A stretch of 64,000 nucleotides of DNA from an uncultured Bacilli bacterium (GCA_947629025.1 CANRCC010000005.1:3288-67287), one strand, 5' to 3'. Positions 53,860-64,000 are shown, numbered from the stretch's first letter. Translations and numbers: made by a program. The notes: generated by a model from the sequence alone, not told the origin.

Positions 53860-54987
53860 CTATAAAACTATAGCTATCATATTATTAGAACCCTTATTTA
53901 CAACTTTTCCAAGAGTATTTTGTAATTTATATCTTAAATTATCTGGCATAAGTGATAATTTTGCTTGTATTCCCTCTTGAACTATTTCATCTAAGCTTCT
54001 ACCAAATATTTCACTTTTCCATATATTATCTGCGCTTTCTTCTTGATTTTTAGTTAAGTAATTAATCAATTCTTTAGATTGAAGTTCTGATCCTATAATT
54101 GGTTCAAATGTACTTTCTACATCTACTCTTATCATATGAATTGATGGCGCGACTGCCTTTAATTTAACACCATATCTACCACCTTGTTTAACTACTTCTG
54201 GGGTATCTAGTTTCATATCTTTTAATGTTGGAATTGCTATACCATATCCTGTTGATTTAACCATTTTTAACGCATTTTTATATTGTTCAAACTCTTCTTT
54301 AGTATCATTATATTCTTGGAATATCGATAAAAGAGCAGCTCTACTATTTATACTAGTACCAATAACCTCTTTTAATATATCATCATATAAATTATTTGGA
54401 GCTGTTAATGTAATAGTTACTTCTCCTTTTGATGGATCTACTTCAGATAAATAAGATTTTTCTATTTGTTCACATGTTCTAAAATGATTATTAATTGTTT
54501 GTATATCTCTTAATTTATCAACCTCAACAACACATTCTTTTATTTGATCTATATATACTTTTTTAAGAGGATGTGTTGATTTTAAACAAGCAATCCAATC
54601 TGGAATATTAACTTTAACATTTAAAACAGGAAATTCATAAAGTGCTTCTCTAAGTATATTATAAACATCTTTTTCATTCATTGTTTCTACACTTATTGGT
54701 ATAACAGGAACATTATGTTCATTTTTTAATTTTTCTGCAAGTTTTTCAGTTTCTGGAAGCGTCGGATGTGATGAATTTAGAAGTACTATAAATGGCTTTC
54801 CTATTTCTTTAAGTTCATTTATTACTTCATTTTCAGCTTCTAAATAATTGTTTCTAGTTATATCTCCTATACTACCATCTGTTGTAACTACTATACCAAT
54901 AGTAGAATGATCTCTTATAACTTTTTCAGTTCCAATTTCAGCTGCTTCTACAAATGGTATATCTTCGTCATACCACCGTGAATACAA
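53860..54987 (-). CDS. spoIVA: stage IV sporulation protein A, 3' segment only (the region homologous to SpoIVA from residue ~118 to the C-terminus); the 5' segment with the Walker A ATPase head is absent from this locus
   Basis: RWYDEDIPFVEAAEIGTEKVIRDHSTIGIVVTTDGSIGDI...SLMPDNLRYKLQNTLGKVVNKGSNNMIAIVL aligns collinearly with B. subtilis SpoIVA from PWYEEPIPFHEAAEIG to the C-terminus. There is no ATG; the upstream in-frame codons are unrelated (PKYVWYIFYYFRYHFLYS) and reach the recombinase stop codon within 14 codons. hup-spoIVA synteny as in Bacillus. Confidence 0.8.
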   Translation of the reverse strand: MYSRWYDEDIPFVEAAEIGTEKVIRDHSTIGIVVTTDGSIGDITRNNYLEAENEVINELKEIGKPFIVLLNSSHPTLPETEKLAEKLKNEHNVPVIPISVETMNEKDVYNILREALYEFPVLNVKVNIPDWIACLKSTHPLKKVYIDQIKECVVEVDKLRDIQTINNHFRTCEQIEKSYLSEVDPSKGEVTITLTAPNNLYDDILKEVIGTSINSRAALLSIFQEYNDTKEEFEQYKNALKMVKSTGYGIAIPTLKDMKLDTPEVVKQGGRYGVKLKAVAPSIHMIRVDVESTFEPIIGSELQSKELINYLTKNQEESADNIWKSEIFGRSLDEIVQEGIQAKLSLMPDNLRYKLQNTLGKVVNKGSNNMIAIVL

Positions 54988-55032
54988 AAAGTGATACCTA
55001 AAATAATAAAATATATACCAAACATATTTTGG

Positions 55033-62800: not shown

Positions 62801-64000
62801 AGGCAACTTCATTATATCTATATTTTGATTTTATACTTTCATCAACAAATACCTCATAAGTAATTTTATACTTAGGTTGTCCTTTTACTGGGAATATAGT
62901 AGTTACTGTTGCATTTTTAATATATACACTATCTTGAGTAAGTATTTCTTTTTCTCCTATATTTTTATCAGTATATGTATGTCTATCTGTACCTAAATTA
63001 TAATTTGCTAAAAATTTAACTTTATATCTTCCATCAACACTGTCTTTATAAGATAAAATTACATTATCGTTAATAGATGTTATTTCCTTACTATCAATAA
63101 TCTTATCAGAAGAATCAACTAAAACAACAACTAATTCTTCTATTGTTTCATCTTTATCATTAAATTTATATGATGTTAAAATTGTTTTATTTTCTTTATC
63201 ATAAGTTAAGTTAATATTATTTATATATGGTGAATTTTTTAATACGTTATATGTTAATGTAATATCTTCAAAATCTTTATCCTTTTCAAATACTTTTAAG
63301 TTATTTAAACCAACTTTACTAATAGTAATAGTATATTCACCAAACGTAGAAGTATCTATATTATCTAGTATTACTTCATAACTATTTTCATTTAATTTTG
63401 TAACTTTATACTCTTTTTGATTAATTGTAATTGTATCTACAATAAATCCTTTATCATTTGTACTTTCAAATGTAACAACTGGTTTTTCACCCTTTTCAAT
63501 AGAATCAGTAACATTTACATTAAATATTTTAAAATTATATCCACTTGTTACTATTATTTCTTTTGAAATAGTCAAAGTACCATTATTTTCTTCTCCAGTT
63601 ATATCATTTAATTTATTAGTATCTAAGTCATATTCTGCATTTATAAGTACACTATATACTACATCTTTTTTAAATTCATATTTAAAATGATTTTCTTTTT
63701 TTAATTTTTCATTTATTACTATATCTCCATTAGGATTTTTTACTATAATATTACCTTTAAAATAATTATTTTTATCTTTTATTAAAGCATTATCTTTATC
63801 TTCTAAAGTAAAACTAAATACATTTTCTTCATCATCAACATTAAACATATCAATATATGGTTTATCTTTTAATACTTCATACTTAATACTAGAATTTACA
63901 TTAATTTCATTATTATTATCTAAAATTACTTTTGTAAGTTTAATATCATAAACACCAGATTTATTTGGCGCACTTAAAGAAACACTATATAAATCTCCAT
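56853..64000 (-). CDS. giant (>2380 aa) secreted/surface zinc metalloprotease, M26 (ZmpB/IgA1-protease-like) family, with GLUG repeats and Ig-like repeats; N-terminus beyond window end
   Basis: HExxH motif in YTYHTWSHETAHNMDARLF resembles M26 HEMTHN. Two blocks of GLUG-type repeats (VGGLVGW..., IGGLIGFGQGG..., VGGLAGE...). The reading frame is open to position 64000 in frame with the ORF-track Met at 63848. Confidence 0.65.
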   Translation of the reverse strand, partial: GDLYSVSLSAPNKSGVYDIKLTKVILDNNNEINVNSSIKYEVLKDKPYIDMFNVDDEENVFSFTLEDKDNALIKDKNNYFKGNIIVKNPNGDIVINEKLKKENHFKYEFKKDVVYSVLINAEYDLDTNKLNDITGEENNGTLTISKEIIVTSGYNFKIFNVNVTDSIEKGEKPVVTFESTNDKGFIVDTITINQKEYKVTKLNENSYEVILDNIDTSTFGEYTITISKVGLNNLKVFEKDKDFEDITLTYNVLKNSPYINNINLTYDKENKTILTSYKFNDKDETIEELVVVLVDSSDKIIDSKEITSINDNVILSYKDSVDGRYKVKFLANYNLGTDRHTYTDKNIGEKEILTQDSVYIKNATVTTIFPVKGQPKYKITYEVFVDESIKSKYRYNEVASVTVNGLNYDANKTGNPYTSSISFTVPSESGILNLEATRVQLRYEDYNNNVHEFFSVKPYTVKIDVLKDKPSVKNLEIVDEDYDDKSVTFKFNVEDDKGGFNGGKIELNGDEKDIKIGENKVTFNNVLNNELFNLNFYADYELDTNLLDKDNNQNSYKNELIYTIPYGLYSNSKYESIKISNIKAISSDNSEYFNKNEDIKLEFNIDGLDSELNLSVDKIVIKDTEYKVEKIEDKYYIVTNGYSNSGIKNIEIKEIILSNGKKVILKDPVKLSVEVLKDSVTIQDFKYQIEDKNINIEFKVKDIDKSVFGELQDQIKIRIYNEDNNLIEELPYNNKITLKMIDDIQRYYIRVYANYDCDVNINNGKNNYTEELILDETISIDENYILLKDITDITLYKKEDGNTTEITNVNVNDLKENKDSYFVKISMTNMPTIYSKISKVLEENKRLILVLDYKYVTDDGKTSDLRINFGEIKSGIASNDVSPISFEELISKINDNPKGTFTLTHDLDASMINVSTSAIIDINFKGKLNGNGYTIRNLTKPLFNTIESGVVENLKLENINLPSSNAKGALANKVSSSTIKNILISSFTKDGSEAQTGSLVGTASNNSKIENSRVKGLNLNVGWNNQQVGGLIGVLENSTVKNCYADGKMSGNWNFIGGLVGDIKGTSTITNSYTKVSMSGSSGVSCDLACSYTGNLIIENNVTLSSGFKSGLSNKSIKSENNYMLGADNNANGITNIDENSVNDSLFKVNAKFDTNIWNINNISSDNLPTLLTENISKYKDEENYDATKEILYNNLSLLMPFYSNEKIVNSSKNISKDDILSNQEIMHIVPIDENGNLVTYLTYNDQKKIKKIKVVFKNNEKRVYSVRFDKLYDMVASYRIDDLKIDYTYNHYVINSDSQIINKLTNYLSSLTYEDNLDSLTKTSDSRLYKDFYNDVTKNELKEFVLKYISNSNYVNPTNDEAIDYYIEKEVKKDQKIEKVLYVYNYLKRFYGFDVDGIMLNDLLLFNMQGFNKNITPYQIALKFISNDNNIKLNTTNDTYNRVFYEYTNIETIPEFLEYIVKSLSDLDVSNWYTSKFKGYLSEVKVDNRDDIKYTLWDHIKSKDVKPNGTYANWYNYALPIITLPENAAYIISTPTQFIIGAQRTYIADPNNTESKEMLINRIQMYSDRMKEYYTNASKLLVDAKYFNDINTIQIDKRYTYDSNGELIFQNPYTTEEPFHKNFNEVVGVWAYNDYNAATANGTSIIWRVEGLMDGDLSKGSEYTYHTWSHETAHNMDARLFLKNNGRRTGAGGEDYADGNLTQSFGDGTINMNISVNYPVNANVTSNLTPQRVNTSEKIQDFYQKMFEVSDFLDYLEAQAFLQLTPEEQSKVAVQVSYLDENGNTVDASNTTRYTVLTQQDFMEMNLRDVEDLWDNRIIIKPGVTSYETVGINRYGGYSLYTRRWYQPHDDNGRPDSYSFKEFAFEMLGYKGYDKGYIEYYSDIHGKDGDLGALRAITNDQNMTFKKYKLERYNMMKQNMTKMKYIDSKQVIEDYKNALKTDALNNDRNVKQSTNVKRNNYYYIKRITDDFTTDIYADTTSMDVHVKDYESFINAINSNLYRTIVLDNDIDFSNYSAKDSSIIDLFSGIIKGENHKIYNINVPLFNTLNGAKIYDLKIENVNINQAQERLGALSKNIYNSEIKGVNLKNITIDSNNNKEVGSLTGYIQNTRVNNVHVTDANISGSTRIGGLIGFGQGGNNITSSSANANVIGSSNAVGGLAGEANNDTITNTYSIGFIKGATDVGGLVGWADNSSIINNFAKVQVNANNNTGGFVGKIVTKANIKNNISFSINSNGYKFDGRTDANVFMDGYFNNYEVEEYAGKTALSKDVPKSAITIIKLEDLKNKGFYTNTLGWSENIWDLSRVESGGLPKLKGNDPNNNLMHINTSQKFIIPSLSNNINLITEATETNEDESQDNDDKNKTLDEAIIEKKKEVLEDE

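Follow-up and report, generated by a model that had tools for sequence, protein, structure and literature searches.

The DNA analysed here, called the window below, is a stretch of 64,000 nucleotides from an uncultured Bacilli bacterium (GCA_947629025.1, CANRCC010000005.1:3288-67287). Near its far end the sporulation gene spoIVA, which encodes a morphogenetic ATPase of the spore coat, is interrupted by an integrated element of about 10.5 kb, which consists, in this order, of an attachment site (attL), a metallopeptidase gene of the M26 family as cargo, a small open reading frame (ORF), a gene for a large serine recombinase and a second attachment site (attR). The window holds the attR side of the element together with the 3' part of spoIVA, and related contigs supply the rest. 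Joined in silico, the two parts of the gene give full-length SpoIVA, and we argue that excision of the element probably restores the gene in the mother cell of the sporulating bacterium.

An interrupted spoIVA beside a recombinase gene

The minus-strand ORF at 53860-54987 matches the Pfam profile SpoIVA_ATPase at positions 121-237 of 237 only (E 2.8e-48) and also contains the entire SpoIVA_middle (1.4e-59) and SpoIVA_C (3.8e-28) domains; what is retained is the end of the ATPase domain with the middle and C-terminal domains. Homology sets in at the Trp codon 54975-54973, and the residues MYSR that precede it in the ORF derive from the arm of the element. From there on the segment is collinear with positions 10364-11485 of L029, a contig from a sister species in which spoIVA is intact. 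The recombinase gene reads toward this segment, and its stop codon lies 57 bp from the breakpoint. The coordinates of all features are collected in Table 1.

Table 1. Features of the interrupted spoIVA locus; positions are counted from the first base of the window
Feature	Position	Strand	Basis and remarks
spoIVA 3' segment, Trp122 codon to stop	53860..54975	-	Pfam; 95% identity to residues 122-492 of 492-aa SpoIVA (references P0002 and P0004)
attR	54950..54999	-	Element half-site AGGTATCAC (54991-54999) and N15; TG 54975-54974 inside the Trp122 codon; host arm inside spoIVA
Large serine recombinase gene, 518 aa, TnpX/TndX type	55033..56589	-	Resolvase, Recombinase and Zn_ribbon_recom domains
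Conserved 53-aa ORF	56582..56743	-	End overlaps the recombinase start by 8 nt; N-terminus MYExxEFYxxxGxDLKEVLKSCIYNYY
Promoter-like region	56766..56827	-	CATACAAT (56773-56766); conserved boxes GTTCTTTTT and AATGTCTAAT; sigma-70-like TTGCTA-17-TATAAT (56827-56799)
M26 (IgA1-protease-like) metallopeptidase gene with GLUG motif, incomplete	56853..64000	-	Pfam M26_N, M26_C and GLUG; frame open to base 64000

A preliminary description of this DNA, made from the sequence of the window, had taken the ORF for the C-terminal part of SpoIVA only, without the Walker A head and with no 5' segment in the window. That reading holds: the segment covers residues 122-492, the ATPase profile is matched only from position 121, and no 5' spoIVA segment is found within the 64 kb. 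The same description had placed the stop codon of a 518-aa large serine recombinase 45-57 bp beyond the end of homology, had seen a giant metalloprotease gene filling the remainder of the window, and had set the insertion at 9 kb or more; the distance given above and the open M26 frame agree with it on the first two points, and the size is corrected to about 10.5 kb. Its comparison of the recombinase with SpoIVCA, the skin-element enzyme, stands for the domain architecture (Resolvase, Recombinase, Zn ribbon), while the closest enzymes are instead TnpX and TndX. The best solved relative is the TnpX catalytic domain of Tn4451 (PDB 2mhc, E 1.5e-30), and the best annotated full-length relative is TndX of Tn5397, with 32.8% identity over 99% of the query. 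A match to DUF4368 is weak (22.3 bits against a cut-off of 25), and the sole match in PHROG is to integrase.

The association of this recombinase with one position in spoIVA extends well beyond the window. C-terminal SpoIVA fragments that start at the same Trp are 73-100% identical to that of the window, and in four lineages with differing downstream neighbours a recombinase of 518-530 aa precedes every fragment. At every locus the recombinase gene ends 18-150 bp ahead of the spoIVA segment. When metagenomes were scanned with an alignment of these recombinases, 43 loci were returned, 37 of which include enough downstream DNA to see what follows. In all 37, with recombinases 56-76% identical, a spoIVA 3' segment beginning at residue 119-122 comes directly after the recombinase gene; among the 17 nearest relatives on viral contigs in IMG/VR, which are at most 44% identical, none has such a segment beside it.

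These data all come from metagenome assemblies, and so the junction might be suspected of being an assembly chimera. The window-type junction is, however, common to at least ten independent assemblies from ENA and Logan, which indicates that it is no assembly artefact. ERZ27248999, ERZ27249487 and DRR848778 are examples of metagenomes that contain the window-type split allele. The 37 other loci, which come from different projects and assemblers, likewise carry the junction, and the geometry of the att sites is conserved. We regard the chance of a chimera as negligible.

The missing 5' half and the attachment sites

Residues 1-129 of a closely related full-length SpoIVA served as the query in a search for the 5' half. 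Of the 120 best protein clusters, 43 or more are fragments of 120-140 aa that break off exactly at ...(R)MVKTPW followed by a few unrelated residues; the SpoIVA part is residues 1-122, with the Walker A motif GAVRTGKST. These fragments sit downstream of spoVIF, as intact spoIVA does. The best of them for the window, protein P0124, is 97% identical and lies at the end of contig L016 (NCBI GCA_037193845.1), where der and spoVIF precede it and yunB and a small acid-soluble spore protein (SASP) gene are close by; spoVIF, yunB and the SASP gene are all intact. After its Trp codon comes AGAACCGTAAAAGTGATACCC, the inverted repeat of GGTATCACTTTTTGTATTCACGG, the arm at the breakpoint of the window. 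In L017, a 94% identical relative, the 5' fragment, the M26 peptidase gene, the small ORF and the recombinase gene follow each other in this order on one contig.

In an alignment, the intact allele of L029 matches L016 as far as base 10371 and, from there on, window positions 54975 to 53851, with the switch at TGG. Rejoining L016 and the window at that codon reproduces L029 base for base, in frame; the split locus is thus the single orthologous spoIVA locus, and joining its halves restores the gene. Seven contigs carry both halves around a complete element, and all seven rejoin in frame at Trp122. They represent six distinct elements, of 4163, 6614, 10188, 10610, 10751 and 11050 bp (the element of L172 matches that of L141). 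The rejoined proteins, obtained in silico, are 489-492 aa long and unite the Walker A ATPase, middle and C-terminal domains in one polypeptide. In an exact-sequence look-up, the rejoined SpoIVA of five of the seven loci is 100% identical to an intact protein found on hundreds of contigs, and one species is represented by 534 intact contigs and 264 split ones. Identical intact alleles of this kind imply that insertion is precise, recent in some populations and common. A scan of genome contigs with rejoined SpoIVA, from which 80 loci were kept, provided the taxonomy and the unoccupied site (attB); all 80 are intact, full-length matches outranking half matches. Those checks proposed in the preliminary description that can be made by computation come out in favour of a split gene: a 5' segment with Walker A ends at a matching att site in L016 and in at least 43 other protein clusters, the halves join to full-length SpoIVA both in the seven complete-element contigs and in the comparison of L016 and the window with L029, and L029 provides the uninterrupted gene of a relative at the same locus.

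From the seven complete elements the site on the excised circle (attP) can be reconstructed as GGGTATCAC-N15-TG-N15-GTGATACCC, 50 bp, symmetric about the TG of the Trp codon. This TG, within codon 122, is the predicted crossover dinucleotide. The attB of the sister species fits the reconstructed site, as is confirmed by intact L029; of the junctions formed in silico, the rejoined attB contains AAAACCCCTTGGTATGACGAAGAT and the circle-junction attP contains GGTATCACTTTTTGTATTCACGGTGGTAAGAACCGTAAAAGTGATACC. The geometry GGTATCAC-N15-TGG is shared by five lineages, and GGTATCAC occurs a single time in the 64-kb window. In more diverged elements the position of the TGG is kept and the arms differ, the attP arms being without GGTATCAC.

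Open frames are maintained in both halves, and one could suppose that these are translated separately into a two-piece SpoIVA with no rearrangement of the DNA. Several features make this highly improbable. The 3' ORF of the window starts at a TTG in the att arm without a Shine-Dalgarno sequence, and its start and leader vary in every lineage because they derive from the DNA of the element. The split also falls inside the ATPase domain, between profile positions 120 and 121, and intact alleles of identical sequence are the norm.

Cargo, companion ORF and selection

The M26 gene that is cut off by the end of the window can be followed in protein P0288, which is 100% identical, 2747 aa long and encoded on a 68,551-bp contig; the gene must therefore run about 1.1 kb past the last base of the window. 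It occupies the same position in L002, L011 and L017. Other elements carry glycosyltransferases with GtrA, a subtilisin-like (S8) protease or an AAA ATPase. The larger spoIVA elements, in L128-L131, have a Mob_Pre relaxase and helix-turn-helix (HTH) regulators, and the relaxase marks them as integrative mobilizable elements; the element of the window contains the M26 peptidase gene, the small ORF and the recombinase gene only, with no relaxase. No phage structural, packaging or lysis genes are present in the complete elements of 4.2-11 kb. A TnpX/TndX-like recombinase, a Mob relaxase in some relatives and the lack of phage genes together identify an integrative, partly mobilizable element family. 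A prophage was considered and ruled out, there being no phage genes and the viral-contig relatives, at most 44% identical, never lying at spoIVA. The preliminary description had called the insertion skin-like; this is right for its architecture and wrong for the prophage-like nature that the name implies, the element being of the Tn4451/Tn5397 type. The hosts are uncultured low-GC gut Bacilli, whose relatives go under the names Clostridium sp. CAG:433, Ca. Faecisoma and Acholeplasma sp. CAG:878.

Some further observations concern the cargo. In L128 (10485-15744) and L131 (3020-12916), genes for Mob_Pre (MobV-type), Fic, PAP2 and HTH regulators on the attL side form a Tn4451-like integrative mobilizable layout. 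A copy of the M26 gene in L177-L179 (L177 11097-18257), with 99.1% DNA identity to window positions 56839-64000, lies between an ICEA-like gene and a DNA methylase gene, with neither recombinase nor spoIVA nearby, and the identity ends 14 nt past the stop codon. Another copy, 80% identical, is found in L027 (11504-19705) immediately downstream of an intact spoIVA and convergent with it. The occurrence of the gene in three contexts suggests that this cargo has recently moved or been captured. In L011 (6829-8072) a pair of IS3-family transposase genes (HTH_Tnp_1 and rve) has been inserted within the element and separates the M26 gene from the small ORF; neither L017 nor the window has this pair.

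Just upstream of the recombinase gene, and often overlapping it, every element examined has a small ORF of about 35-77 aa with the family N-terminus MYExxEFYxxxGxDLKEVLKSCIYxYY, kept even where the recombinase is only 59-60% identical. In L165 (~9800-9910), L168 (~9790-9900) and L162 (~300-400) it is a peptide of about 35 aa, MYEYKEFFNEEGxTLExELKxCILNYYNKY, apart from the recombinase start. The family is narrow: among 1.84 billion cluster representatives there are 25 matches at E <= 0.001, 23 of them 35-70 aa long. The ORF has no match in Pfam, in PHROG or among PDB folds, and a single-sequence AlphaFold model is helical with a predicted local distance difference test score (pLDDT) of 72.6. 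It is a candidate accessory or directionality factor.

Upstream of this ORF, at a distance of about 15 nt from the ribosome-binding site, all 20 distinct sequences have CATAnnAT. Elements of class B mostly show TAATTTT-N14-CATAGAAT, similar to the sigma-E-like promoter that is conserved ahead of spoIVA itself, TAATAAC-N13-CATATAGT. Expression of spoIVA in Bacillus subtilis and Clostridioides difficile takes place in the mother cell and depends on sigma-E. The CATAnnAT box is suggestive of a sigma-E-like -10 element serving the small ORF and the recombinase gene. A SpoIIID-like box (TGTCTAAT) in the promoter region was also considered and is too weak to claim.

The split halves are under purifying selection equal to that on intact genes. 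The ratio of nonsynonymous to synonymous substitution rates (dN/dS) between 3' segments of split alleles is 0.06-0.18, as against 0.05-0.23 in most pairs of intact alleles, and the 3' frame measures 371 codons in all five split alleles compared. For the recombinase the ratio is 0.12-0.40, and for codons 1-32 of the small ORF 0.06-0.58, with most pairs below 0.45. Between the window and L011 the synonymous distance dS is 0.68 for spoIVA and 0.71 for the recombinase, near-equal values that are compatible with long joint inheritance of element and gene. L020 and L024 give another picture: with recombinases 90% identical and similar cargo, they have different flanks and SpoIVA proteins of only 69% identity, which speaks for horizontal movement of the element into one and the same site.

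Taken by itself the window shows nothing of spoIVA except a truncated gene, which could be a dead remnant in an organism that no longer sporulates or that has an intact spoIVA at another place; the damaged 3' segments of L144 and L154 (described below) would suit such decay. This is nonetheless very unlikely. The corresponding 5' half is found in syntenic position, next to sporulation genes (spoVIF, yunB and the SASP gene) that are intact, and the split locus is orthologous to the one spoIVA locus of relatives in which the gene is whole. A remnant would also not be expected to keep the 371 codons and low dN/dS of the split alleles, or to be accompanied by purifying selection on the recombinase and the small ORF.

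Proposed excision and comparison with known systems

We propose the following course of events. A recombinase of the TnpX/TndX type put the element into the Trp122 codon of chromosomal spoIVA. In the integrated state the Walker A head and the promoter are parted from the remaining three quarters of the gene, and no SpoIVA would be made. Early in sporulation the recombinase would join attL with attR at the central TG, probably with the co-translated small protein as directionality or accessory factor. The element would leave as a circle, an in-frame spoIVA of 492 codons would be restored in the terminally differentiated mother cell, and the forespore chromosome would retain the element.

Restoration of spoIVA by excision in the mother cell is suggested by the following considerations. 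The layout, with the recombinase gene at the edge by the 3' fragment of the interrupted gene, is that of skin (bioRxiv 10.1101/2022.02.25.481979). Like every known case, this one concerns a gene of the mother cell, here a sigma-E target (PMC5025042). Finally, an element that ruined an essential sporulation gene would neither attain the frequency seen nor be kept under selection unless spoIVA were restored when needed, and restoration in the terminal cell only is the sole way for the element to stay in the germ line. We put the probability that the element is a spoIVA-intervening element, whose excision restores the gene in the mother cell, at roughly 0.68. The wider proposal is that a programmed rearrangement gates SpoIVA production across a wide clade of uncultured low-GC gut Bacilli, by way of a non-phage family of the Tn4451/Tn5397 type that has evolved strict specificity for one spoIVA codon, uses a previously undescribed protein of about 35 aa as directionality factor and carries secreted host-interaction proteases (M26, S8) as cargo; here we see the chances as evenly balanced.

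A number of points weigh against excision in the mother cell. For both excision and integration, TnpX and TndX manage without any accessory factor, and they are not developmentally regulated (PMC2475636); going by their example, the small ORF could have a role other than that of directionality factor, and excision could be independent of sporulation. In the window, the promoter region has a perfect CATACAAT and no recognisable sigma-E -35 element, and a sigma-70 scan finds a good sigma-70-like promoter upstream of the small ORF and recombinase gene. The pattern GGTATCAC-N15-TG-N15-GTGATACC, taken as the mark of an excised circle, has four matches in IMG/VR, none with a recombinase; all four represent one unrelated sequence of 40% GC and are chance matches, and no attP circle was found there. 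The best candidate partner of the window, L016, which is likely to be from the same strain, is a separate contig. Two of the 37 loci have truncated or frameshifted 3' segments (L144 11623-12477 and L154 2764-3186), owing either to errors in the assembly or to gene decay where sporulation has been abandoned. With the element polymorphic within species, the signal of purifying selection may partly date from the time when the allele was intact. Finally, the hosts are uncultured, and it is from sequence that we infer excision, its restriction to the mother cell and the part played by the small ORF.

Much of this could also be explained by a selfish integrative mobilizable element for which the highly conserved region around codon 122 of spoIVA is simply a dependable attB; carriers would be non-sporulating, or would sporulate only after rare stochastic excision, and the capacity to sporulate would be an on/off polymorphism at the level of the population. 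The recombinase is of the bidirectional TnpX/TndX transposase type (PMC2475636), larger relatives carry the Mob_Pre relaxase, the same SpoIVA alleles occur both intact and split within species, and there has been horizontal transfer between hosts; the two degraded 3' segments and the sigma-70-like promoter ahead of the recombinase operon in the window fit as well. Against this, gut anaerobes that are transmitted as spores should lose a knock-out of an essential sporulation gene by selection; the split allele nevertheless makes up about one third of one species' contigs and is found in dozens of lineages. Both halves have kept their frames, and their dN/dS values are as low as those of intact genes, also where element and gene appear to have diverged together (dS ~0.7). 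Stochastic excision in vegetative cells would cost the element its place in the germ line, and the tested elements of this architecture in mother-cell genes all excise during sporulation (PMC4191935, PMC5595907, PMC5025042). On balance we find such a purely selfish element rather unlikely, and continue with excision in the mother cell as the preferred interpretation.

Among known systems, the closest parallel in layout is skin, which interrupts sigK and is excised by SpoIVCA in B. subtilis and by CD1231/CD1234 in C. difficile. Here too the coding sequence of a mother-cell sporulation gene is interrupted; a recombinase with Resolvase, Recombinase and Zn-ribbon domains stands at the edge, upstream of the 3' fragment and in the same orientation; the att sites are short and rejoining is in frame; and the element is polymorphic among strains, with a cargo that varies apart from the recombinase. 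The two differ in their target and in kind: skin is prophage-like and 14.6-48 kb long, whereas the spoIVA elements are 4-11 kb, lack phage genes and have a TnpX/TndX-like recombinase with a small ORF upstream, and their excision is so far only inferred. The gin element in gerE of Bacillus cereus ATCC 10987 (GirC and GirX; PMC5595907) is similarly non-viral, splits a mother-cell gene and combines a serine recombinase with a small extra factor. It is, in contrast, 28.6 kb long, has three recombinase genes and belongs with another target and another recombinase clade, and its excision during sporulation was demonstrated experimentally (PMC5595907). SPbeta in spsM, vfbin in spoVFB, vrin in spoVR and yin in yabG also divide mother-cell genes by means of an element with a large serine recombinase, are rejoined on excision and follow the logic of acting in the terminal cell only, but they are prophages or prophage-like and sit in other genes.

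Tn4451 and Tn4453 (TnpX) and Tn5397 (TndX), on the other hand, share the recombinase subfamily and are likewise small non-phage elements, and the Mob_Pre relaxase of the larger spoIVA elements resembles TnpZ of the Tn4451 family. Elements of the Tn4451/Tn5397 group have a GA crossover dinucleotide and several targets that resemble the circle joint. The spoIVA elements differ from them in having TG rather than GA at the centre and in being found at codon 122 of spoIVA in 37 of 37 loci, against several target sites; their cargo is not antibiotic resistance, and the element of the window lacks a relaxase. TnpX and TndX, furthermore, need no accessory protein and have no link to development.

No report of an element in spoIVA was found in full-text searches aimed at spoIVA interruption and at TnpX/TndX, in the supplementary files of Mageeney 2020 or in recent lists of interrupted genes, a coverage that leaves out most subscription journals; the interrupted sporulation genes on those lists are sigK, spsM, spoVFB, spoVR, gerE and yabG. 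Within the literature searched, the preliminary description was thus justified in placing an interruption of spoIVA outside established knowledge. For an element of its kind, this one is unusual in its early-acting, universally conserved target, its transposon-type recombinase and its new small accessory ORF. The list of split sporulation genes would be joined by that of a basement-layer ATPase which is universally conserved and needed early by all spore formers, and a rearrangement at spoIVA, if true, would place a checkpoint far ahead of sigma-K. Elements of this family are common, reaching dozens of lineages and up to about a third of one species' contigs, and transposon-type serine recombinases, besides phage integrases, have been recruited to such sites. 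Automatic annotation of metagenome-assembled genomes from the gut will miscall carriers as being without an intact spoIVA and hence as non-sporulating. Through its cargo, a mobile element of bacteria from the human and animal gut is linked to an IgA-protease-like enzyme, and a compact 50-bp att pair, with a recombinase and a candidate miniature directionality factor, may interest genome engineers.

The remainder of the window is core chromosome, with recA, pnp, ffh, ftsY, the RNase J gene, the suf operon and hbs, the last downstream of spoIVA. When window positions 38700-53800 are compared with L029 (12296-21473) and L031 (5457-14553), the DNA downstream of spoIVA in the intact sister species is seen to correspond directly to the window from 38.7 down to 30 kb. 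A block of some 15 kb, with hbs, cca, dnaD, recU, divIVA, recA, uppS and the gene of a class A penicillin-binding protein, is therefore differently placed in the window. Between spoIVA and hbs, at 51975-53773 on the minus strand, are a 92-aa ORF and a 499-aa low-complexity, coiled-coil-like ORF, neither with a Pfam match, whose position is kept in window-type contigs; they could encode lineage-specific sporulation or coat proteins. Farther away, at 10900-13150 on the minus strand, a sortase gene lies beside that of a 586-aa SpaA-type pilin-like protein with a thioester domain, possibly an adhesive pilus locus in a genome-reduced lineage of gut Bacilli.

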